From contig CDROCS010000652.1 in the NCBI GenBank assembly GCA_977020255.1, positions 1-64,000 on the forward strand: a DNA stretch of 64,000 bases. Reading direction: 5' to 3'. How positions within the stretch are numbered: the stretch's first letter is position 1; each line of letters starts with the position of its first letter. Under the pieces are notes generated by a model. That model was given only the letters and a program-made list of their open reading frames with translations. It had not been told where the DNA came from and did not search any database. The translations under genes and the position numbers were made by a program. This DNA comes from Obrimoposthia wandeli (Eukaryota). Shown here in pieces: positions 28,540-64,000 of the stretch.

Positions 28540-28572
28540 AAAAATACACAATTCAGTTTTGGCGCAACTCAT
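28540..28572 (-). pseudogene. First 11 codons of the Polinton major capsid protein, truncated by mtDNA
   Basis: MSCAKTELCIF resembles the CxKSELDLF N-terminus of Polinton MCP and directly follows the pX-like gene (overlapping ATGA). Confidence 0.7.
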
Positions 28573-28946
28573 TTTGCAAATATTGTTCCTTCAACTTTCT
28601 TACGTTTGTTTATATTGATTTTTTGCTTCTTTTTACTTTTAAATCCACTACCTCTTTGGCTTTTATTTGATTTACGTTTTCTAATCAAATTAGCAACTTC
28701 AGGTAAAACATTATCAAGTTCATCAAGCGCATGCTTCTTAAAAGTTGGTATTAGTTTATTGTCCTTAGATGAAAGGTAATCCTTTCCTAATTTAGATATA
28801 AATCGCCCGAGTCTCTTTAAAAGAGGAAAGGCAAATCTACCTAATGTTCTAAGCCAGCCAGATCCATATTGTTTACCAACAAAATATGGTAATTCTCCAC
28901 CTTGTTGGCTTTGGCTATAAGCTTCAATTATTGCTGGATTCGCCAT
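28569..28946 (-). CDS. Small basic pX/GasderminX-like Polinton protein
   Basis: QYGSGWLRTLGRFAFPLLKRLG amphipathic motif, QRGSG and a Lys-rich tail; position between penton and MCP. Confidence 0.7.
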   Translation of the reverse strand: MANPAIIEAYSQSQQGGELPYFVGKQYGSGWLRTLGRFAFPLLKRLGRFISKLGKDYLSSKDNKLIPTFKKHALDELDNVLPEVANLIRKRKSNKSQRGSGFKSKKKQKININKRKKVEGTIFAK

Positions 28947-29987
28947 TTTGTTTTCTTAAATGTATTGTTAAACTTGTCTTGGCCCCGTACGTGAAATCTA
29001 TTAGTTGTCCGGAATCATCTCTAATATTTACTTTAATATTGTTTATAGAAAAGAGAGAAACTGGAAGATACATTGGTTGATCTATACACATACCGACAGC
29101 GTCCCCATCTCTAGTTTCATTTTTAGATATCCATATTGTTCTCAAAAGTGGAACTCTCTGTCCTCCTACAAGCGTTAGTTCTATTAAATTAGTATAAATA
29201 TATAAATGATTAACAGCATTTAAAGGTTTTGCCTTATTTTTAGCTTTTATGGTTTTTATTGTATGGGTTTCAAAGGTATTACTGTTTAAACCAAGGTTTT
29301 TAGCGAATTTATCATCAAATAAAACTCGTATTATATTGCTCTTTACTGTAAACGTTATTTTACCATTTTTTAATGTTACACATTTATCGAAATATTCACT
29401 ACATTCCTTCTGTATTAATTTACAGAAATTCACTTCACTATCTAATTTATAATCTTTAGAAAACATTTTCAGTTCCACTACATACTTTGGTCTCGTTTCA
29501 ACTAAGAACACTTTTGTTACTCTATCAGGAACATTTTTAAACGATTTAGATGAGGCTATATCAGATCTCTTCATACCTACTACATGTTCACTGTCAAAAC
29601 CGAATTGAAGAGCTTCTCTATCAGATCCAAATATAATTTGAATAGGTTTTAAAAAATGTTTTAGTCTATTTTTAAATCTGACTTTGTTTTTTCATATATT
29701 ACTTTCACTTCTTTATCTATACAATTGTAATAGAATTTTCCTTTACTATCAAACCCAATCACAACTTCAATTGATTTTTCATGGTCAACTTCTTTTGTAA
29801 ACGAAATATGTGAGTTTTTTCTGATAGTAAATGGAGAATAATAAAAGGAAAATTCTGTTAAAGCCGCTTCCCATTCTCCTTGGAGATTTATAGGATTTTC
29901 CCAATCGATAATAAAGCTACTAGCGTAATTATATGGTTGAGTCTTCGGACATCCGTTCCTAGGTAAAACCATATACATAGACTTCAT
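28924..29987 (-). pseudogene. Polinton minor capsid protein (penton), one frameshift at ~29660
   Basis: N-term LP.N...PINLQGEWEAAL; C-term YIYTNLIE...PLLR...P.YLPV...IRDDSGQLIDF. Confidence 0.85.
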
Positions 29988-31013
29988 ATTATATTAGATG
30001 CTGATATCCAAGTTGAATCTGAATAACCATTCCATTTAACATAGTATTGTTTATGTTTACCGGCACCCTTAGATTTAAATATTTTTTGAATACGGAAAAC
30101 GCTAGGTTTATTTGATATTACTTGTAGTTCTTGCTCGTAAAATTTACCGTGAACGATATTATTGTCAGCATCTTTAATAGTATACATTATTGGATTACTC
30201 TTTTGATCAATTTTACTTATACAAAATATTTCATCGCTCCAATTCTGATCAAAGTTTTTAATAAATGGAGTAGAGCTAATTTTCGAAATTCGGACATATT
30301 CGTTTTTCTTATATTTAGCTTTTTTAATATTTTCTATTTTATTCCTGTTCATCCAAATATCCATAGAATATTTATTAGTAACATCAACAGGTCTCATTTT
30401 CTTGAGACCTCTATGTTCCTAGTGATTATATGCATGTATTATTTTAGGTAAAACTTGGATCCATTTTTTATTTCCTTCTTTTGTGAAATACTTTTTTATT
30501 CGATCTCTTAAAGTACAATTAAATCTTTCTACTACTGCTGCTTTATACTGTGAAAACACAGAGTAGTGATTTATATTATTTTGTTTAAATAAAGATTGAA
30601 CTTGCTTATTATAAAATTATTTTCCTAAATCAGTTTGCACATTTTGTGGAATGTCCTCTTTTAATATTTCTTTAATGGCTTCAAGCATAGCTATTGAAGA
30701 CTTTGCTTTAACTGGAATTGCACGAGCAAACCTGCTAAATACATCAATACATGTTAAATATATATCGATATCCCTTATTAATGGAAAAATATGGGATCAT
30801 CTCCATCAAATCCATTTGCCATAAATTATTAGGACCGCTGGTTTTGTAAGCTCTAGTTGGAAACCTTCTTCTCATCAGCTTGTTCAGACTGTAGGCTAAC
30901 TGGTTACTCAGCCATTTCTGCGTTTTCTTATATTTTTGTTTTGTTCTTTTTGCTAATTTTGAAACTCCGGTGTAGCCAATTGGATCTTTTGGGTTGAACC
31001 ATATCTTCTCCAT
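29984..31013 (-). pseudogene. Polinton retroviral-type integrase with C-terminal chromodomain
   Basis: WQMDL, QTDLG and VVERFN (DDE); WSDEIF, G.FYEQEL and YYVKWNGY; frameshift at ~30760 plus stops. Confidence 0.92.
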
Positions 31014-31099
31014 TACAACAATTTGAATAGAAAGATAATTTAAATTTAGGTAAAGAAGGGTTAGCACCCATATCTTTAACTGATTTTATAAATAATTGT

Positions 31100-31431
31100 C
31101 TATGGACGTGTCGCAGCTTTAATACTACTGATAATTGAAGCAACAACTGGAATAACAGCCCCTATGAAACCACCATTATGTTTAAGAATAATATTTCGTT
31201 TCCTTTTTTTACTTTTTACATTAGCAATATCTAGAAGAGTTTTTTCTATATTTCTTTAATATATTTTTCTGATTTCCAACTTTTACTCGACCCAAAACTA
31301 TATTATACAAAACTTCCAATAAATCATCTACAACAAAAGATGGAAATGCTTTAAGAATAATCATTCTCTTATGAGAAGAGGCTTTGACTAAAGCTTTAAA
31401 AAAGGGTATGCTTCTTTGTATTTTTCTTCAT
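31100..31431 (-). pseudogene. Basic core-protein-like Polinton gene, frameshifted
   Basis: MKKNTKKHTLFKAL...ILKHNGGFIGAVIPVVASII; the GGF motif is typical of Polinton core proteins. Confidence 0.55.
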
Positions 31432-31496
31432 TTTAATAAAAAAGGTTCAATTTAAATATTGTTTATATTCGAAGCCATTTAAGTTTTTTTTTATTT

Positions 31497-32114
31497 CTAA
31501 CTACAGATTTGATTAATTTTTTCACTGTCGGTTAAAACACGTAAATCATCTGGGCAAGCTTGTGTAAAGTCAATAAATATATACCCATGTGCTTGTTTAG
31601 CAGCATCGTGGAATGAATCAACTAGAAAGTTCTTATTTTGGGGAAATGCCTGTCTGGTAACGAAATCAACAACTGTTTGATCTCTAGGATTTTTAAATAA
31701 AACTAAGTAATGTACATTAATATTTCTTGTTCTATGGTGACCTCCTTGGTGAAAAAGATTTTGAGTGATAAATATAACTGTTACTTCACGATGTCTTGCA
31801 ATCTTTGTAAATAAATTATTAAAGTCCGATTCCTTGTTAGCCTCCTCATACAAATCATCAATTATTATTACATCTTCTTTTTTCAATCTTTCACACCAAT
31901 TTGGATCAAATCCTTCAATAAATTGTATTCCCTTCAACTTGCAAACTTCTGTTTTGGTTAATCCGCTTTCCCCTCCTCCACCATGATGCCAATAAATATT
32001 TTTGAAACTAGATTTGAAAATAGATTCATTTTGCAACAATTTACATACGAAATGTGTCTTTCCACTTCCCCTGGGACCAACTATTTGAAATACAGCATTA
32101 TTATTTAGCTCCAT
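31497..32114 (-). CDS. A32/FtsK-like genome-packaging ATPase
   Basis: Walker A GPRGSGKT, Walker B VIIIDD, ARH, ITQNLF and LVLFKNPRD. Confidence 0.93.
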   Translation of the reverse strand: MELNNNAVFQIVGPRGSGKTHFVCKLLQNESIFKSSFKNIYWHHGGGGESGLTKTEVCKLKGIQFIEGFDPNWCERLKKEDVIIIDDLYEEANKESDFNNLFTKIARHREVTVIFITQNLFHQGGHHRTRNINVHYLVLFKNPRDQTVVDFVTRQAFPQNKNFLVDSFHDAAKQAHGYIFIDFTQACPDDLRVLTDSEKINQICS

Positions 32115-32436
32115 TGCATATACTCTTTCATTTAATATTGTTTATATTATTATAGAAGTTTCCTTATTGAAATGTACAATGTTAGAGCTATTGTAGATGA
32201 AATACAAAAATGAATTAATGAATATTTGGCTATAATTTTATTTATTTGTGTACGATTTCTAAATTCTCGAATAACGTGTTATCTAACCAATATTTCAATG
32301 TTATCTCTTGTTATATCATTATTTTTTAATTCTGATAAAATTTCTTTACCCCTTATTTTTCAAGAAAATATTTCGTCGGCAAGACGATCCACTTCATTGT
32401 CTCTATTTATAGTATTATTCATTTGAAACAATAAGT

Positions 32437-33030
32437 TTAAACAGGTTTGTTTATAGAAAAAGATAACAAGATGTAATAAGATATATTATCTAAAATCAAA
32501 TCAACAATGTCTGGATAATCAAAATTTTTCAATCCCAATATCATAAGTTTACCACTGGAAAATATATTTACACATAGCGGTTTAAACTTCAAATAACTGA
32601 GAGCAGGAAAAATTTCTGGTTCATACATGCATTCTTCTTTCATTTTCTCTGCAGTTTTAAAAAGATTTATCAGTTTCCCAAGATTAGCCGAAATCGTGAT
32701 TGATTGTATTGCAGTGATTCGAATTCCAAATGGCAAATTGAACCCAAGCATTGGTATTTTGCATCCCATAACACGACAATTTCCTAAAAGAATTCAATAT
32801 GAAAATAAATAAACTAACCTGTATGAAAAATAACAACTGTGAAATTGTCAAACTTTTCCACATATTGTCTCGGCTTCCATTCATTGAATGGTAAGTATGA
32901 AACATCATATTCTTCTTTATATATTTCTGAACCTGCTTTTTTATTGCACGTTTCTTGTAATTATCTTGCAAACCTATTATAATTGGATGATATATTTAGT
33001 CCAATCAAATTCAATGCGTTTGTTATATTA
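32437..33030 (-). CDS. TATA-binding-protein-like gene with a 35-nt intron (32784-32818); 5' end uncertain
   Basis: Repeat 2: YEPEIFPAL...PLCVNIFSSGKLMILG. Splicing restores repeat 1: TVVIFHTGNCRVMGCK. An in-frame TAA lies near 32960. Confidence 0.75.
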
Positions 33031-33034
33031 ACCA

Positions 33035-33550
33035 ATGAGATTCATGTTTTTGTTAGAAATTAGTATAAAAGAATGGGCCATTGGAGGACAAATCACAGTA
33101 AATGCATTCATATCAAGACAATTATCAACGATGGAGGATAGCCAACGGGTATTAAGCGGTGACGAAGATTCGGAAATATTTGAAGAATCGGATAAGGATA
33201 TGTATGAAGAAGTGAAACAATATTTCAAATACAAAGTCAGATTCTTGAAGAAGGCTCAACTGATTGCTTTAGTAAATCCTGTGACAATTGAAAGAAGAAA
33301 GTTCAGCTACTATCTATCAAATATTCAAAAACCAGATTTTCAATATCTTAAACAGAAAATTGAAAAGGCAGTTCCGAATTTTACTTTCAATAAGAACGAA
33401 TTTTATATCCGAGGACACGATGAAGCATTTCTAGATGACTATGGAAGATATGTTGATATTGATGCGTTTCCGAAAAAGAAGCAAGGGACTGTAACAATTC
33501 GACTTTATGGTTACAAAAAAGATGAAATTAGAACAAAGTTGCCTATGTAG
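33035..33550 (+). CDS. Hypothetical 171-aa protein divergent from the TBP-like gene
   Basis: Open ORF with an acidic patch; no family recognised. Confidence 0.5.
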   Translation: MRFMFLLEISIKEWAIGGQITVNAFISRQLSTMEDSQRVLSGDEDSEIFEESDKDMYEEVKQYFKYKVRFLKKAQLIALVNPVTIERRKFSYYLSNIQKPDFQYLKQKIEKAVPNFTFNKNEFYIRGHDEAFLDDYGRYVDIDAFPKKKQGTVTIRLYGYKKDEIRTKLPM

Positions 33551-35029
33551 AAAATTGAAGGTGCTCATATCCCTATGTTTTAACTATTTATTTTCCTTTT
33601 ATTTTGCATGTAATAAATTGTAATCGGTTTTATTCATTTTATTCGCTGAAGGTTTGATGCTCCGGGAGTCTCTTGAAATAGAAAATATTTAGGCTTCATT
33701 GGTTTATCTCCAAATGGCGAACAAATCATACTTCCACCTAAAGACTGGTAGTGAGACCTTAGCATGCACGCACAAACCAGTCCTCATTACGGCTACACAA
33801 GAAAAGGACAAGAGGGATTCTAACTTTTTGTTAGAGTTTTTGGGGGTTTTAAAACGTTTGCTACTTACTACTTAAAGCAACATATACTTGTAAAATTTAA
33901 TTCCAAATTTTATTTAACTACTTATCAACATAAGTAGTATATGTTTTACTGAACTTTATTAAACTATCTACTTATCAATTGTTTCTTCTTCACAAATTTT
34001 TACCTCTAACGTATTTTCGATAAAACCTTTTGATCTTCAAAATTTTTACGTTTAACATATTTTCTCTATTAAAGTTATATTTAATTTTTTGTTGTGGTTT
34101 TAATTCATCAATTTCAATACGCGCAAATTCAAAATTTTAATTCTAAATACATGTTTGTTCCGGTTACGAGTATTTAAAAAGTGATTTTACTGCATCATAA
34201 AATAAAATAACAAGATAGTTTCAATTATTTAAGCGTACTACAATTAGGGCATAACTTCATCTTTCAAAATACATCTCATATTTTATCTTATCTCCTCATA
34301 ATAAATTGCATAACTTCCTCACCTCTCCATATATCCTTCAACATAATATAAGACTGAACATAAGCTTTCTAAAGAAACTTGTACAAAACTATATTATGAC
34401 ATCTTCAATTGCATAGATGTTAAACTGAAATTATAGATTTTTCATACATTAATCATGAATATTCTACATGTTATTGATTATTATACAAATAAATTTTCAC
34501 CAATTATTACAGTCATTAAATCTCAAGAACTTAAAAGTCAATCATTGTTAAAGCAGTGATATTTCTAATGTAGAAATAAAAGTGATGTTTGGAAGATAAA
34601 TTAACAAGATTTAAATTGATTAAGAATTGAAATTAAAGCATAGAGGATATATTAACGTTATGTTTAGATAGTTTAAAGGTTAAAGGATGCGTTCAAAATG
34701 TTTCAGAAGAGGAGAAGGGTTTAGAGGGAAATTTAGAGGCGGTTTATAAGATAAATTTTTACATAGAAGGGTCTTGAGCAGTATTATAGAGAATACCATA
34801 TTATTATAGTCTCTGTGTTCTATTTCCTTGCTCTATTCAAAATTATTTTGCAAATTTTTGCATTAACCAATCAGAACACATTTAAACTCTATTCTAATTT
34901 ACTTAATTCGCTGTGGATTACTAAGTTTTTGCTGCAATTGCTCCATCTAATCGCCCTCCCAAGTATATTTACTATATTTAAAACCCATTACTATACGTTA
35001 CCTTTGAAAAAATGAATTATTCCCCCAAA

Positions 35030-36560: not shown

Positions 36561-36605
36561 TAGCCTCCCTGCAATTGTGACTGAGAAAGTAGACGTCAGG
36601 AGAAT

Positions 36606-37250
36606 TGATCCATTTTTACTTTATAATAAAGTATTGAAGAACCTGTGTTACAGTGACCTATATTTGCTTCACAAAATGGAATTGTTACCATTGTGTTTGT
36701 GGAAGGGTCGAATGTTGCTTTGAAAGTTCTTAATTCGACTTCAAAAATTTTAATAACTACTAAACCACTTTGCTTAACTCCCATTACGACATAAGTTCTT
36801 CTTGTACATGCACTATCAGATTTAATCGTACCTACAACTGATATAATTTGTTGAATTATTTTTCGTTGCTCGGACTTTAATTTCTATATATATTCTCAAT
36901 TTTCCTGTTGCGAAAGCATCTTTACAATTTAAGGTGTCAACTATTAATGGTGTTTTTCCTAGTGTAGGTTTTACTATTGAATTGTGACTATGTTGTCCAC
37001 AATATGTTATAAATGTCTCTACGTGTACTCTGCATTCAAAAACTTCTACATATATAAAATCTGTTTCCTAATATACTTGATATAACTCAGTATTTTTGAT
37101 TTTTACCTCATTTGAGTCAGCGTCTGCACATTGCTGTAAGTCCATTAAACAATTTTTATTTAGAATTTTATATTTTGAACAGTCATATGCTTCTAAAGCA
37201 TTAATTGGTTTTATCGTGTTATTAATTAAACATATTGTTAATATAATCTA
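36606..37250 (-). pseudogene. Chuvirus-like glycoprotein (env), N-terminal fragment
   Basis: Signal-like peptide then LEAYDC, FECRV, YCGQHSHNS, C.D.F.TG and FCEANIGHC, the Cys pattern of Jingchuvirales G. Confidence 0.7.
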
Positions 37251-41189: not shown

Positions 41190-44100
41190 TTTTCAGTTAT
41201 TTTTTGTATTTTCTGTAATATTAATTTGATTAGTAATTTCATAAGTCTTTGTTGTGAATGTTGTAGTATGTAGTATTTGTTTTATATTTGTTTCTTTGAC
41301 ATATTCTTTAATTGTAATTACTGACCAATGGCCACAAAAAATCGTAGGTTGGTATAATTTGGATATTTTATTTCCTAAAATCACTAAGTTTGATAGATTT
41401 CTACAAGTCTCAAACTTTTGTCCCCATTGTCTATACATCATTAGTTTATTAGTGATTACACATTCTCTATTATCCATAATTATTTTATCGGGATATCTTA
41501 TATTTTCTATGGTTAAATTTGTTTTGATTTGTGATTTTTCTAATTGTTTTTCCGTGTCTTTCCAAAAATGAGCATTATGTCCTATATATCTAATTCTAAC
41601 GAGGGCTTTATCTAAGTTATCTATTTTTAGTTGAAATTCCCATTTTATCATGATTTTATGTTTTGTTATATAATTTGCTGTTGTTTTTAATATTGATGCT
41701 AAGTATATATGAGTTTCTATAATTCTTTCATAGAGTTTAATAATTTTTAAATTCGACTTAACTCTGATTTTGATTTGTGTTTATGTTCTTAAAAATGGTA
41801 TTATATAATTTTTTGATTCAATTTTGTAAATATTTATGATTTGATTTTTTTCAGATTGTATTATTTGAATTTTTCCTAATTATCTTGTAAAGAGTCATAT
41901 TTTTAACTTTATTGATGTGATTTCAGGTATTATTGTAATTAATCCAAAAAAATTTATGATATGTTTTGATGAGTCGTATTTATTTGTTTTTGGTTTTGTA
42001 ATTAATGGATTTTCATTCGGGTTTGTTCCATTTACTTTCAGTATGTTATTTTTTATTGTAAAATATATTACCAATAACATCATTATTTTACAAATTTAAT
42101 TTATTGACATTTTTATTGTATTTCTGATCTGATGACTTAAAATAATCTTGTTTTGTTTTTGTGAGTTTTTTATTGTTAACATTTGTAGAACAGTATTATC
42201 GCTAGTTGATCTTAAGTTATATTTGTGACTTTTTACTTTTGTATTTTCCTCAGGTACTTCTCAACATCGGTTTATATGTGTTCTTATTTCTTTTGATTTT
42301 GGTTCATTATCGAGTTTAGCTGTTATGTTGGTTTCGTTGGTACTAATAACTGTATATAGTCCTTTGTATGGTTTTGATAGTTTGTGTGACAGTCCTACAT
42401 TAATTTGTGGATTGTGAATCATCACTTTACTTCCGCTTTTTTTATTTGATGGCTTAGTTTTTCTATCATAATATTCTTTGTAATTTTATTGTATGTTTTT
42501 TACAAATGATTAGCATTATTAAATGCTAATTTTATTCTCTTTCTAATTTCTATTTTATATTCAGGTATTTCTAAGTATTGTGAAGTAGGTTGTGGTAATG
42601 TTATGTTAATAGGCATTTAAGGATATCTGAGGAACATAAGGTAAAAAGGTGGTTCTTCTGTAGATGCATGTCCTGATGTTTTATATAAAAAAGGCATGGA
42701 TGTATATGTAAATCCCAATCTGTTTGGTTGTTGTTGTGTATGATGCCATCATATCTTCAAGGGTTCTAATAAATCGTTCTACTAATCTGTTGGTTTGAGG
42801 GTGATATGGTGTTGTATTAATCTTTTTTATATGAAATATTTCTGCTATTGACACTAGTATGTTATTTATGAATTCAGGACCCTTGTCGGTTAATACTTTT
42901 CGGGGTGCACCGAAAGTAAAATTAATTTTTTTCGACTTAAACCTTCGCGATGGTTTCAGCCTTATGGTCATGTGTTGGGAAAGCCTCTGACCATCTTGTA
43001 AACTAATCAGAAAATACAATTATATATTGATTTCCTCAGGGTGTTTCAGGTAATGGTCACATTACATCCATGGCAACAGTTTCCATGGGAGGTGCTGGAT
43101 AAGGTATCGGTCTTAAAGGTATTTTTGTGGTACGTAAATTTTTTTTTGTTTAAGACATATTTTACATATTTTACATATTCTTTCATGTCGATCCAAAAGT
43201 ATTTTAAGTTTAATCGTGAATGTGTCTTTTTTGGTGATAAATGTCCTCCTAGGTCTCCATTATGATATTGAAGAAGTAATTGACATTGAATTTCCTTGTG
43301 AATATAAATTTTTGTAATTTAAATAATATACTATTTCGTTACTATATTTGTATCATGATTCATGAATATATAAATGTTTTCTTATTTTTTCATCTGTTGG
43401 TACTTTATTTATGGTAATGTATTTAGTTATTTGTTAAATTTCATTATCTTTGCTTTGAAGTTTAGTAAATATTTTTTCGTCATATTTAGCTTCAATCATT
43501 GTGAAAAGGTTTAATTCTATGTCGTCTGTAGTTATTTCGTTTATTTCTATTATGTTTTATCAAATTTGTTCGCCTTAGATCGTATTCATTTTTTGCGAAT
43601 ATTACATCATATTTTTCTGTCAAACCTTTAAGTTTTGATTTTTCATAATCATTTAATTTGATATCGTTAAAATTGATTGTAGATTTATCTTCTATTTTTT
43701 ATTATTTATTACTTCAATATTTTCAATAACACTTATTTTTCCTAGGCGTACACCTTCCTTGAGATGAATTTCATTAATATCTGCCTTTATGATTCTGACT
43801 GGTATTGTGTTGTTTTTTATTTTACAAATTATATTTTGTAAATCGTAGTTCAACGTTTCTTGTTGATATCTATAAGGTTCAAATAATACTTCCTTTTCTG
43901 TGATTATGTTGGTTTCTAGCTGTAACATTGTTTCTGTTCTTGGTTGAAGAATGATATCTCCTTTTATTTCTAACTCGTATTCATTTTTAGCGTTAGGTTT
44001 ATAAATGTATTTTATTTTATTTTTAACGAAATCACAATCGAAATTATTTCCTAATTTTCTTAATGTGTTTTTTGGCAAGGAGAATTTTTCATGATTCTTG

Positions 44101-44579: not shown

Positions 44580-45970
44580 AACTTTATAAATGTAGTATGT
44601 TGTTAAAATTTGACTTAGTAGAATTTTAAAACAAATTAATAGAGCATATATTCCAACTAATTCAGAAAATGTTTAAATGTGTTAAAAAGTATGATTCTTG
44701 TGATTGGTTCTAGAAATAATGAATGATTTTTGTAAGAAATTGGTAATTCTTTTGTACATTTTGGGTGATTTCTTAAGTTAATTATTACTTTTTGACATTA
44801 ATAAGTATATAACACTTCTCCCATTACTCTTCTAAAAGCACTGTCTGCTAATGGAAAATAATGGTGTTATTAATTCTATGTTAGTAGTAATAATTGTCAA
44901 TTTTGTTTTTAATTTTTCTTGATTTAATTTACAATCATTCATTATGGTTTCTCTATATATTGCTTCTATTGTCATTAGTCCTTTGTGATAAAAATAATCT
45001 AATTTATTGTTAAAATAATCATAATTTTAATATCAAATTTAGTTGGTGTCGTTTTTGCATTATGTTTTTTTTATTACTTAAATATATTACTTTATAATTA
45101 GTTGTATAAACAGAGTGTCTACATCAGGACGACTCTTTATTTTTGATAAATCGCATTCCTGAACCTTGTTCAATGGACATTAATATAGTTGAAGTTGATG
45201 TTTTTCGAAATTTTTTGAGTTTTATATTTTTTACGTATGTCTTTTGGAATTTGTTGATCTAGTTCCTAAATCTTATTCCTTGAATTATTTAAACATTTTC
45301 TGATTTTAGATGTACTAATTTCCATTGATCCATTTTTACTTTATAATAAAGTATTGAAGAACCTGTGTTACAGTGACCTATATTTGCTTCACAAAATTGA
45401 ATTGTTACCATTGTGTTTGTGGAAGGGTCGAATGTTGCTTTGAAAGTTCTTAATTCGACTTCAAAATTTTTAATAACTACTAAACCACTTTGCTTAACTC
45501 CCATTACGACATAAATTCTTCTTGTACATGCACTATCAGATTTAATCGTACCTACAACTGATATAATTTGTTGAATTATTTTTCGTTGCTCGGACTTTAA
45601 TTTCTATATATATTCTCAATTCTCCTGTTGCGAAAGCATCTTTACAATTTAAGGCGTCAACTATTAATGGTGTTTTTCCTAGTGTAGGTTTTACTATTGA
45701 ATTGTGACTATGTTGTCCACAATATGTTATAAATGTCTCTACGTGTACTCTGCATTCAAAAACTTCTACATATATAAAATCTGTTTCCTAATATACTTGA
45801 TATAACTCAGTATTTTTGATTTTTACCTCATTTGAGTCAGCGTCTGCACATTGCTGTAAGTCCATTAAACAATTTTTATTTAGAATTTTATATTTTGAAC
45901 AGTCATATGCTTCTAAAGCATTAATTGGTTTTATCGTGTTATTAATTAAACATATTGTTAATATAATCTA
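44580..45970 (-). pseudogene. Chuvirus-like glycoprotein (env), longer copy
   Basis: Same N-terminus as 36606-37250, plus CRHSVYTTNY, GEVLY..C.KV and CTKELPISYKN.SLFLEPITRII. Confidence 0.78.
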
Positions 45971-55560: not shown

Positions 55561-56059
55561 CCAACTAAAGGAGAGGTTACTACTCCGCATATTGTAGATG
55601 TTAACAACGACTTTAGCATCTTCAACCCTCTTCAATGCTGAACATACTAGTTTAAAAATATTTTAAAACATACTAACATACTATTAAAAGGGCTTCAAAA
55701 GGAAGAAACGAGAAATAGCCAAAATAGAAATTAAGAGAGATTCCAATTAAGAAACGTTGAAGAAAGGTTGGCTAATTAAGAAGAAGAAAAACTCATTAGC
55801 TATGGTGGGAAAGGACAAACTACTCGTCGGAGGACAACATTAGTAGAGCAAGATCCAGACAATCGTAGTGGAAAGCAAGCAGTCGGCATCTCATTGAAGG
55901 TAAGAAGCACTTAGCTAAACTGATACTTAATTAATTCCTTTTCCATTAAGGAAATCCAAGTTGCTGAGAAGACGCCTCTTAAATAAACGAAGACGATTCA
56001 TCTCTAAATTCAGTAGGGAAATGTAATTAAAAATTGAATTAATAGATTATTCTCCCAAA

Positions 56060-57420
56060 ATGTACGGGTCTCATTATAGTCTTGAAGATTTACTCCCCTC
56101 AAATTCAATTATGAGTGGGATTTCTGTTGTATTTTGTAAATCTGCGAATGTTTTTGCAAATTTATATGGAAAAATCCCATTATCATTAACCGATGCTGGG
56201 AACACTGACTGTGTAATTGGCCATACATTTAAAGATGCCGTTAAATTTTTAAAAGACCTGCTCAAAAACTGCAGAGAATCTATAAATCTCAAACTGCAGA
56301 ATTCAGTATATGCAGTTAAAGATAAATATTTCTCTGAAGTTTAAGGTATACGTGAAATTTCCTAAGAGCGTAATGTACCCAACGCGTATTTAAGTATATG
56401 ATGCAAATCATATCCTTTGAGGTTATGAAACACGATGGGAATGCATGGTTTTTTAAAGAGTCGACAGCCAAGGTTAAAGAGGTTGCACGCCGCTCTCAAG
56501 TATCGCCCCGTAACATGATCGTGATCTCTGACTAACTTAGACTGGGTACCACACAAATAACATGATCTACTAGAATTAAAATTAACCTAGTCTATGCTTG
56601 CCATGATCATTGCTTGGTGAGCATTAAGATCATATACAGGTTTGACAATTGTGGTTCCTAATTCTTTTAATTTTAACATAAAATTTAAATTTAAATTTGA
56701 ACCGAAAAATTCTAGATACTGAGTTATATTGGGTCCTAAGAATAATAGTCCTGCCGAATCCGGTAGGTGAATACTTTCATTTGATCGTGCAATGCTAGAA
56801 TTAACTCCAAACAGCATACACCCTGAATTCCACGGGTATGCATTTTGCCCAATTCCTGAATTTTAAATTCTTATCCTTAGGCATGCTATATAGCGTATTG
56901 TCATCAGGATTCAGTGTACATAATGTCATATGTTTGCTGTAAGAGAGCTGAAATCGGAATCCATGCAAACATCTATGACACCACTTACACCTTATCCTAA
57001 TCGGTAAGGCTCCATTATCTAAATTTAGAAGACGATCTAAATTGGGAATAGCATCATAGTTGAATTTCTTATTATATTCAGCAAAATTAAGTTGACCGGA
57101 GTCCACATCTACTACTTAACTCGTTATAATTAGTAAATTTTTCCATCTAAATTTCTTCCAATTTCAGTTACAAAATTATCATAGAAAACAGTTGCTTTAT
57201 GTGAAATTACCCAAGTTTTAGACATCTCATTGATATTTTTAAACTGCACTGTTGCGCCGAATTGAACCTTAGCCTGTCCTAATTTGGTCACATGCTCTTA
57301 TCTTATTGGATGATTATTTTCCTCAAATGAGAAGAATTGTTTATCTGTTATTGGTTGATAATATTAAATTTCAAATATTGTATTTCTCCAATTAGAAGTA
57401 TTGTTTATCTACATGTCAAG
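56060..57420 (-). pseudogene. Polinton pPolB remnant (arm A)
   Basis: CHRCLHGF...H..LC, MPK...LKFRN, VRDHDHVTGRY..AAC, FHNLKGYD.H, RFIDSLQFL and GIFPY. Confidence 0.92.
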
Positions 57421-57426
57421 TTATAG

Positions 57427-57891
57427 TTAGATAGACTTAAACATTTTTTTATATACGCAATGGTCACCATGATCACGATATGGACAGAAAATGTTTCGTG
57501 GAATTTTTAATATATTATCACGCGAAATATCTAAGGTATTCAATCTCAATTTTGGAAAATAATTTTTTAAAGACTTATACTTTTTGCCATCCATTTCATC
57601 TAAAACATAAAAATTATTTGTCATTATCAAAATTAGATTTTATTGTATCGAAAATACATATTTCACAAAAAGCCTTATGTCTTTCTTTCCATTTTAATAA
57701 ATGAAAATAATAAGTGAGATATAAATTAGTAAATTTTTTCTTATAATCTAAATTCCTAGACGGTATATTTATATTTATATGAAATACAAAGGATGAAAAA
57801 CGTCACATATATCCATAATACATAATTATTTTATAATATAATCTTCATTTTTGTTAATGAAAACCTCAAAGTCTATGATATATTCTTGCAT
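57427..57891 (-). pseudogene. Small DEDD-exonuclease-like gene upstream of pPolB (arm A)
   Basis: MQEYIIDFE...IIK.LCI...HPL and C-terminal CPYRDHGDHC; frameshifts. Confidence 0.55.
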
Positions 57892-57959
57892 AATTACCCA
57901 AATATGTAGCAAATCCCTTTGTTTATAACTAATGAAAATAAAAAACATTAAACAAAATT

Positions 57960-62188: not shown

Positions 62189-62839
62189 AAAATACTTATA
62201 TGTGTTGTGTTTTTATTTTTAAATTTTCTTAACTTCAATTTTAAAAGATAAATTTAAAATTAATTAAGTAAAAGATAACAGATTTTTTTATGAATTTAAT
62301 ATATATTAAATCGCATTGATTACTTATAGTTTTATTCAATTATACTAGAGATAAACACTTATTTGTTAAAAAATATACCCCTTACTTGATTAAAAATATT
62401 TCCAATTTATATAAATAGGTTCAAATTTATCTATCTCTTCATTATTTAAAAATATAATTTACTAAAATGCAAAATCTCATAACGAAAATAGAAGAAATTC
62501 GAAGAAAGAAGACCTACGAAAGAAGATCTTAAATCAAAATGTGTATGCTGACGTCGCGACCGAGTGGAATCAAAGGGTGGATTTTCAAAACAGGCGGCTA
62601 GCTGAATGACGAAGGATCCTGGACTGGAATAGGAAGGTGGAATTGGAAAAAAAGTAACTGTCTGAAAATGAAAGAGTGGAGATGGAGGAAAAATACCGAG
62701 CTGCAAGAAAGAGAATCCTCCAGATTAAACCTGAATAATTTTTCTTTTGATTTTATTGATTATTTACAGTGTTAAATTTTAAATATTTTACATATCCTTA
62801 TTAAATATAAACAATTTTATATATAATGTTTTTATAAGA

Positions 62840-63080
62840 TGGATGATAAAATAAATTTGAATAAATTATACATTAAAATTATCTCCAGATTTAATGGAAA
62901 ATTACGAAAAAATATTTCTAAAAAAACGATACTCCGGAAATTGTTGCAGATAAATTATGCAATTTACTTTCAAAATATTTAGGTAGTTTTACATTTTATA
63001 TAACTTATTTTAATATTCATAGGAGAATTGAAAATATGTACCAATCTTAACGAGAAAAAATGAAATCGAAGTACTTTGAT
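62840..63080 (+). pseudogene. Spliced hypothetical gene of arm B (40-nt intron 62983-63022)
   Basis: DTPEIVADKLCNLLSKYL|GELKICTNLN. Confidence 0.45.
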
Positions 63081-63150
63081 ATTTTAATAAATTTTGATTA
63101 TTGGTTTTATTTTAATTCGTTAAAGGGATTGGCGACATATTTGGGTAATT

Positions 63151-63600
63151 ATGCAATAATATATCATAGACTTTGAGGCTTTCATTGACAAAAAATGAAG
63201 ATTATATTATAAAAGAATTATGTATTATGGATATATGCGACGTTTTTCATCCTTTGCATTTCATATTTCATGTAGATATCCCGTTTAGGAGTTTAAATTA
63301 TAAGAAAACATTTACTAATTTATATCTCACTAATTATTTTCATTTATTAAAATAGAAAGAATAAAATATGGCTTTTTGTGAAATATGTATTTTCGATACA
63401 ATTAAATCTAATTTTGATATAGAAAATGGATTTTTTAATGTTTTAGATGAAATGGATGGCAAAAAGTATAAGACTTTAAAAAATATTTTTCAAAATTTAG
63501 ATTGAATTCCTTAAATATTTCGCGGGAAAATCTATTAAAAATTCCACGAAATATAATGCTGTCCATATCGTGATCATTGCGCATATAAATTTTTTTTAAG
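63151..63600 (+). pseudogene. Small DEDD-exonuclease-like gene (arm B)
   Basis: IIDFEAF...YIIKELCIMDICDVFHPLHFIF; inverted paralogue of 57427-57891. Confidence 0.55.
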
Positions 63601-63619
63601 TATATCTTATTATTACTTG

Positions 63620-64000
63620 ACATATAGATAAACAATTCTTCTAATTGAAGAAATTCGTTATTTACAAAATAAAATTTTCAACCAATAACAAAATACCTAA
63701 ATCAAATGAACAATCTTTTTAATCGGAGGAATAAAATATTTAAAAATTAATATTATCAACCAATAACAGATACACAATCCTTCTCATTGGAGGAATAAAT
63801 TCAATATTATCATCCAATAAGAAAATGCATGTGTGCATAAAATTTACTATATAAGCTCACACATTTTTTCATTTCAATCCCCGATTTTAGAAATAATGAA
63901 TATGGTAAGAACCTTTATTTTTTATTCTTATTAATATTTATTATTTCAGATTACTTGTAACCTGTTTCCAGCATATTGTGGTGCTTTGGCTCCACATGGA
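63620..64000 (+). pseudogene. 5' region homologous to the pPolB start of arm A
   Basis: Aligns with 57290-57420; a 45-nt GTAAG...TTTCAG intron-like segment lies at 63905-63949. Confidence 0.45.

Follow-up and report, generated by a model that had tools for sequence, protein, structure and literature searches.

A gene of the TBP family in Maverick/Polinton elements and its predicted role in element transcription

A clade of Maverick/Polinton elements of the adintovirus type carries a gene of the TATA-binding protein (TBP) family. The intact product of this gene probably serves the element as a promoter factor of its own and is expected to bind the box TATAAAC and to recruit host TFIIB and RNA polymerase II (Pol II). 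A broken copy of the gene lies on the minus strand at positions 32437-32913, inside a decayed Maverick/Polinton, in the 64,000-nucleotide stretch of Obrimoposthia wandeli DNA analyzed here (contig CDROCS010000652.1 of assembly GCA_977020255.1, hereafter the window). A reading of the window made from the sequence alone had proposed that a Polinton/adintovirus element encodes a TBP-like protein, and both the Pfam match of the window copy (E value of 6e-12) and the TBP fold of a modeled relative bear this out.

The TBP-like gene in the window

The two peptides from which the TBP relationship was originally recognized are both present on the minus strand, in different frames that are separated by a 35-nt GT..AG stretch (32818-32784). 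The downstream frame (32440-32793) accounts for the match to the Pfam TBP family (PF00352; 45.7 bits, with a cut-off of 22.9) and, among 38 PDB sequences listed up to an E value of 10, matches 35 TBP sequences at E ≤3e-7, the best at 5e-16. We considered a chance match as a reading of the gene and rejected it. The upstream remnant alone gave no TBP match in the Pfam scan, only a weak match to Hfq (E 0.008); we assign it to the first lobe because intronless relatives are colinear with it and because of the structure model described below. Exon 2 (32437-32783) is open, with 114 codons after a split codon, plus the stop, and encodes the end of the N-lobe and the complete C-lobe with an E-P-E-I-F stirrup. 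Upstream of it lie a putative 35-nt phase-1 GT..AG intron (32784-32818), predicted by genomic comparison, and the remnant of exon 1 (32819-32913), which encodes N-lobe strands and has no start codon. Comparison with a full copy places the junction of a 63-nt deletion, private to the window copy, at 32913-32914; the deletion took away the initiator-like site, the start codon and the first strand, and its junction occurs once in the whole assembly. The host-type TATA box of the TBP-like gene (TATATAAAG) is located at 32915-32923, on the same strand. Because of this deletion, the gene region is confined to 32437-32913, and positions 32914-33030 are noncoding, promoter or intergenic sequence. The window copy is a dead pseudogene, which corrects the sequence-only reading.

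In 25 of the 28 copies measured in family A, one of five Maverick families of this genome that carry the gene, the interruption has GT..AG ends and a length of 34-39 nt. Family C (37-39 nt) and a single metagenomic locus (40 nt) show an interruption at this codon as well; 29 other scored metagenomic loci are colinear without an intron. From these comparisons we infer an intron of 34-40 nt in the TBP-like gene. An assembly frameshift in place of the intron was rejected given that the ends are conserved though the length varies, with the same codon split in two families and the metagenomic locus.

The decayed Maverick and its surroundings

The Maverick fragment extends over 28540-33589, is 94-97% identical to full-length copies elsewhere, lacks terminal repeats and is decayed, with its capsid gene truncated by mitochondrial-type DNA. 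Contrary to the original description of the TBP-like gene as directly upstream of the packaging ATPase, a small ORF of about 90 codons (32150-32422, minus strand) lies between the two; it has two premature stops here and no Pfam match, and a TATAAAC box (32449-32455) inside the tail of the TBP-like gene is located 34 nt before it. The A32-like packaging ATPase gene (31497-32114; PF04665, E 8e-6), from which some 140 nt are gone near the 3' end at 31526, is preceded at 32 nt from its start by another TATAAAC box (32140-32146), and a further box (31461-31467) precedes a basic, core-protein-like ORF (31121-31431), which is frameshifted here and encodes about 110 aa in full copies; a homologue of the latter shows a weak Adeno_PX match (E 0.017). 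These are followed on the same strand by a broken retroviral-type integrase gene with a chromodomain (29984-31013), a frameshifted gene (28924-29987) that gave no Pfam match and is presumably that of the minor capsid (penton) protein, judging by its position and a motif, a small conserved ORF (28569-28946) ahead of the major capsid gene, with a TATAAAC box within it (28608-28614), and the first codons of the major capsid gene itself (28540-28572), cut by the mitochondrial-type DNA; a homologue of this capsid protein folds like double jelly-roll capsids. A divergent ORF on the plus strand (33032-33550), about 158 aa in full copies, is a frequent neighbor of the TBP-like gene and offers a weak lead to viral ssDNA-binding proteins. 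Altogether, five TATAAAC boxes are retained in the window fragment, and PolB is not adjacent to the TBP-like gene in this copy.

Positions 1-28540 hold mitochondrial-type DNA, about 1.5 units in tandem, in which frameshifts are numerous and a repeat of about 403 bp forms two arrays; the cytochrome b gene in this DNA reads naturally with genetic code 9, and this code, taken with introns of 34-40 nt, would fit a flatworm as the host. The abutment of this DNA on the Maverick capsid gene at 28540 represents either a chimeric join or a NUMT of large size. An LTR element has left pieces at 36599-36883, 42684-43318 and 45292-45603, which contain integrase domains and weakly match a viral fusion glycoprotein family, and more family-A pieces, comprising PolB and an exonuclease-like gene, are located at 56046-57929 and 62388-64000 as an inverted pair about 5 kb apart.

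Maverick families carrying the gene

The first search of the genome with the TBP-like gene returned 150 scored matches at 92-100% identity. A 26-mer of family-A exon 2 has 7,834 exact matches in the 1.35-Gb assembly, a count possibly inflated by haplotypes, and none for the reversed control. If many of these matches sit in full elements, which in family A are about 17.6 kb long with terminal repeats that start with AGTAG, family A could fill up to approximately a tenth of the assembly. Mavericks/Polintons are defined by terminal inverted repeats starting with AG and by a 6-bp target-site duplication. Both features are present in three of the four family-A copies examined (the fourth has the repeats and no clear duplication) and in the single family-E copy. 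Full family-A copies encode PolB (PF03175, E 5e-29), an integrase (rve, E 2e-12 in a homologue), the ATPase and a protease (PF00770 in a homologue; family-A counterparts were matched by tblastn). A capsid homologue that is 43% identical to the family-A protein yielded a model (pLDDT 66) that matches the capsids of Sputnik, PBCV-1 and mavirus with E values down to 3e-13.

The TBP-like gene is intact in 19 of 33 family-A copies, a biased sample picked mostly by similarity to exon 2, with a start codon, open exon 1, GT..AG ends and open exon 2, and a product of about 158 aa; the other 14 are broken. Family A and four more Maverick families of this genome carry the gene in open, conserved form, at 42-55% identity to family B. 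The gene is also present at all four genome loci that were fetched by capsid similarity, out of 101 listed. Family C has the TBP-like gene located between genes for an IAP (BIR plus RING) and a dual-specificity phosphatase (L095:201-2945). In a subgroup of family A (L021:7302-8000, L024:7176-7874 and L010), the TBP frame has no stop and continues into the downstream ORF of about 90 aa, which ends in a hydrophobic stretch; this read-through could reflect either a fused variant of the gene or its decay.

In gene content and organization, these elements resemble the Mavericks/Polintons and alpha adintoviruses described in the available text of two earlier studies (PMC8502044, PMC6431247), with which they share a protein-primed PolB (PF03175), an rve integrase, an A32-like ATPase, an adenovirus-type protease, a double jelly-roll capsid protein, terminal inverted repeats and a size of 15-25 kb. 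They differ in the TBP, which is not among the conserved genes named in that text, including the list of usual Polinton genes in PMC6431247. With respect to the alpha adintovirus criterion, a pfam03175 PolB with an N-terminal OTU domain (PMC8502044), a Pfam scan detected pfam03175 and no OTU domain. The suggestion that the TBP-like module was undescribed was too strong, given that a TBP label appears in the Fig. 5 legend of the 2021 adintovirus paper (PMC8502044), where the element marked may or may not be the present family; the text of the supplement, as available, contains no match to TBP. A full-text search of a literature set with few subscription journals turned up no description of the truncated TBP architecture or of the TATAAAC box. 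The truncated TBP is therefore a variant on a known theme, viral TBPs being known and a TBP label having been published once for such elements.

Relatives elsewhere and phylogeny

Relatives of the protein extend well beyond this genome. A database search retrieved 24 proteins at 44-55% identity, and a profile search of 1.84 billion representatives yielded 57 clusters (at 50% identity) at E ≤1e-30, and 800 clusters, cellular TBPs among them, at E 1e-10. Scans of IMG/VR with the TBP alignment, the capsid, the ATPase and the ATPase alignment detected no relatives. Among 48 metagenomic loci, 19 contain a Maverick core gene, a number that rises to 32 when accessory genes are counted as well; for the 26 contigs of at least 2 kb, these numbers are 18 and 25, respectively. 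Thus, the linkage of homologues to Polinton ATPase, integrase and capsid genes, which had been put forward as a check, is seen in many elements. The gene order varies, with at least two arrangements, in which the TBP-like gene precedes the ATPase or follows the capsid, protease and exonuclease genes. Genes for a ubiquitin-conjugating E2 enzyme or for leucine-rich-repeat proteins lie near the TBP-like gene in some metagenomic relatives (L052:222-719; L078:2303-3109; L069:1918-3327).

In both a quick 95-row tree and a careful 36-row tree, the element-type proteins make up one side of a branch with 100/100 support, and a clade that unites them with two host TBPs is rejected in the 36-row data set (AU p 0.018; LG+G4, with the group named after the first tree); both trees were built without named giant-virus TBP sequences. 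The library protein P0094 groups with the element type. The distant relatives P0122-P0173 branch outside the minimal group, and their N-lobe looks longer and may keep part of the helices, so these proteins could be intermediates. The host has at least five separate TBP-family loci (L089-L094), namely two head-to-head TBP genes on C238, one on C968, and two near-identical divergent loci on C60 and C1092. These separate genes and the distinct branch led us to reject a host TBP or TRF paralogue as the identity of the element protein; the sequence-only reading was right on this point, and the phylogeny it called for indeed does not nest the element proteins within the host TBPs.

A TBP with a reduced N-lobe

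The evidence for the fold comes from an intronless family-B protein of the same genome rather than from the window copy itself. The AlphaFold2 model of this protein (pLDDT 91.5) has TBPs as its top five VIA-align matches (Z 10.8-12.2, with 145-149 of 154 residues aligned), the next fold scoring Z 7.0, and five relatives match PF00352 with 45-65 bits. Cellular and archaeal TBPs (PF00352; PDB 1mp9, 5fur_A, 7o4i_O) share the same saddle fold over the full length, with Z about 12 and rmsd 2.8-3.4. Of the original claim that both saddle repeats are present, the two-lobed fold and the complete C-lobe stand, but the first repeat is not full: in the model, the N-lobe keeps its strands and has no long helix, with both helices 1 and 2 absent. 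Two N-lobe spacings are shorter than in the host TBP by approximately 10 and 12 residues (medians of 37 vs 47 and 19 vs 31; n=71). The stirrup motif E-P-E-[LI]-F is found in 75 of 81 family members, a set filtered on other motifs and not on this one.

Like cellular TBPs, the element protein has a complete C-lobe with the TFIIB-contact glutamates and keeps the Phe before the last strand in both lobes. It differs from them in its length of only about 145-160 aa, in the predicted lack of the two N-lobe helices, in an identity of 22-24% and in being carried by a mobile element. Furthermore, the cellular C-lobe residues Q-N-I-V and L-I-F, which we take to face DNA, are replaced in the element protein by Q-S-x-T and N-[IVL]-F, respectively. 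Of the four DNA-wedging phenylalanine positions, one, which we take to be that of the first N-lobe stirrup, is variable in the alignment, and tight DNA binding by the protein alone is therefore not assured. One study identifies two stirrup glutamates as the contact for TFIIB, notes that other viral TBPs have diverged at these residues, and locates the binding surface for TFIIA, TAF1, Brf1/2 and Mot1 mostly on N-lobe helix 2 (PMC7221094). The element protein thus appears to keep the activating dock without the regulatory surface.

Virus-encoded proteins of the TBP fold are known from large DNA viruses, including the TBPs of Nucleocytoviricota, asfarvirus B263R, gammaherpesvirus BcRF1 and poxvirus VITF-3, and structural matches to such proteins were found in BFVD. 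In the late system of beta- and gammaherpesviruses, a viral TBP mimic reads a TATA variant together with host Pol II, and this system may be the closest working analogy for the element TBP. The element protein differs from the large-virus TBPs in being much smaller and stand-alone, and also in keeping the cellular TFIIB glutamates that are diverged in viral TBPs according to PMC7221094. The element systems also differ in gene content: no element-encoded TFIIB was found in Pfam scans of the element ORFs or in a genome-wide TFIIB search, and there is no RNA polymerase gene among the mapped element ORFs. The genome-wide search gave 12 TFIIB matches from 29 candidates, too few for a Pfam-detectable TFIIB carried by a high-copy element.

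A TATAAAC box upstream of the packaging and virion genes

A search for a motif shared by the upstream regions of the structural genes, as originally proposed, had a positive outcome. In motif classes that were chosen post hoc, after looking at the data, TATAAAC is located 25-60 nt upstream of 33 of 40 starts, belonging to the ATPase (11/12), exonuclease (9/11), major capsid (6/8) and core (7/9) genes, whereas shuffled sequences averaged 0.47 and never exceeded 4 of 40; because the elements are related, the motif counts are not independent. The start set was cleared of near-duplicates and of five wrong start calls (three core, one TBP and one minor capsid). At the same distance, the box is absent before the TBP starts (0/32) and before those of the integrase (0/9), minor capsid (0/6), small pre-capsid ORF (0/5) and protease (0/2), with counts of 0/2 for the PolB-region ORF, 0/3 for the divergent ORF and 1/3 for the small ORF. 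A canonical TATA is commoner before TBP genes (16/32 vs 3/40), as is an initiator-like word (19/32 vs 5/40), although the former is missing at half of the TBP genes and only 11 of 28 family-A copies have the latter. The box also precedes the exonuclease-like gene, which need not be late. One full family-A copy contains 12 TATAAAC sites, of which 5 lie ahead of ORFs of at least 90 aa.

Where the box falls within the tails of three unrelated upstream genes, it uses identical codons; Ile-Asn pairs elsewhere spell the box in 6 of 37 cases. The C that ends the box is conserved in diverged elements and within coding tails, in contrast to the variable host-type TATA boxes of these elements. For a distant Polinton lineage of this genome, the gene cluster (10 regions) gave no match to the TBP profile, and none of its six copies with a visible ATPase start has the box before it, the control being a single decayed family with undefined ends and capsid gene.

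Proposed mechanism and alternative explanations

The scenario that we favor is an early-to-late switch of element genes. Host factors would begin by transcribing the TBP-like gene, whose promoter is of an ordinary kind with TATA and initiator. The product of this gene, a mini-TBP with changed DNA-facing residues, would then bind TATAAAC and dock host TFIIB through the stirrup, bringing Pol II to the packaging, core and capsid genes. The lack of N-lobe helix 2 would let it escape from TFIIA, TAF1, Brf1 and Mot1, and such a protein would therefore work outside TFIID and only with Pol II.

TATAAAC is only one base away from the canonical TATA, so host TBP may read the box. Hence a different, though in our judgment unlikely, explanation, under which the near-canonical box is served by host TBP/TFIID and the element protein is a decoy that soaks up TFIIB or blocks TATA promoters, shutting down host transcription or damping the early element genes. 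A TFIIB stirrup that is the best-kept feature, together with a stripped N-lobe, would also fit a dominant-negative protein, and in family C the gene has other host-modulating genes, those of the IAP and the phosphatase, beside it. Such a role does not readily explain why the final C is kept across diverged elements and coding tails when host-type TATA boxes vary, why the box never precedes the TBP gene itself, or why the TBP-less lineage in the same host has no box before its ATPase. We further regard as quite improbable that the box derives its role from a large DNA virus acting as helper, whose late promoter it would be, with the TBP homologue adapting to, or competing within, the machinery of that virus rather than acting with host Pol II. 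Virophages share a late promoter with their giant virus, which provides a precedent; viral TBP-like proteins are structural neighbors of the element protein, and the product of the divergent neighbor ORF weakly resembles some Nucleocytoviricota proteins (score 0.84-0.86), which is no more than a lead. The putative intron of the spliceosomal type, present in family A, family C and a metagenomic locus, and the integration into nuclear DNA with 6-bp target duplications both point to nuclear Pol II transcription instead. In addition, the stirrup is of the cellular type, and the identity to viral TBPs in BFVD is 9-21% (25 matches at E ≤0.001).

Two further explanations dispense with a promoter function. 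The protein might bind AT-rich element DNA for a non-transcriptional job, such as compaction, packaging, replication or integration, with the promoter box unrelated to it. Its gene often adjoins those of the packaging ATPase and of a putative ssDNA-binding protein, and a protein that has lost two helices could be a DNA-bending module put to a new use; yet the TFIIB-contact motif, kept in nearly all members, has no known use outside initiation, and the gene occupies other positions, after the capsid, protease and exonuclease genes, in other elements, which makes this explanation, too, rather improbable. Finally, a captured fragment of a host TBP that persists as a passive passenger would agree with the broken state of the window copy and of 14 of the 33 examined family-A copies, but we find it very hard to reconcile with the open, conserved genes in five families, with the 57 clusters that match the family profile, or with the fully supported separate branch and the rejected host clade, and consider it highly improbable.

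Implications

Taken further, the reading of the element protein as a dedicated promoter factor leads to a broader proposition that we put forward tentatively, as a realistic possibility: a widespread clade of animal Mavericks might combine a minimal, one-helix-pair TBP with a dedicated TATAAAC promoter in an early-to-late cascade that runs on host Pol II, having shed the surface for TFIIA, TAF1, Brf1 and Mot1 and kept the TFIIB dock. If true, one viral protein would stand in for TFIID, and Polintons would have a transcription programme that is defined.

The timing of capsid and packaging gene expression in Mavericks/Polintons bears on whether virions form, and a named factor with a seven-base box makes late-gene timing in these elements directly testable. 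If initiation works without N-lobe helix 2, this natural minimal TBP would show which parts of TBP are needed for Pol II initiation. The genome contains many intact genes, and a fragment of the gene recurs in it about 7,800 times as an exact match, so the host itself may be exposed to an extra TBP-like factor.
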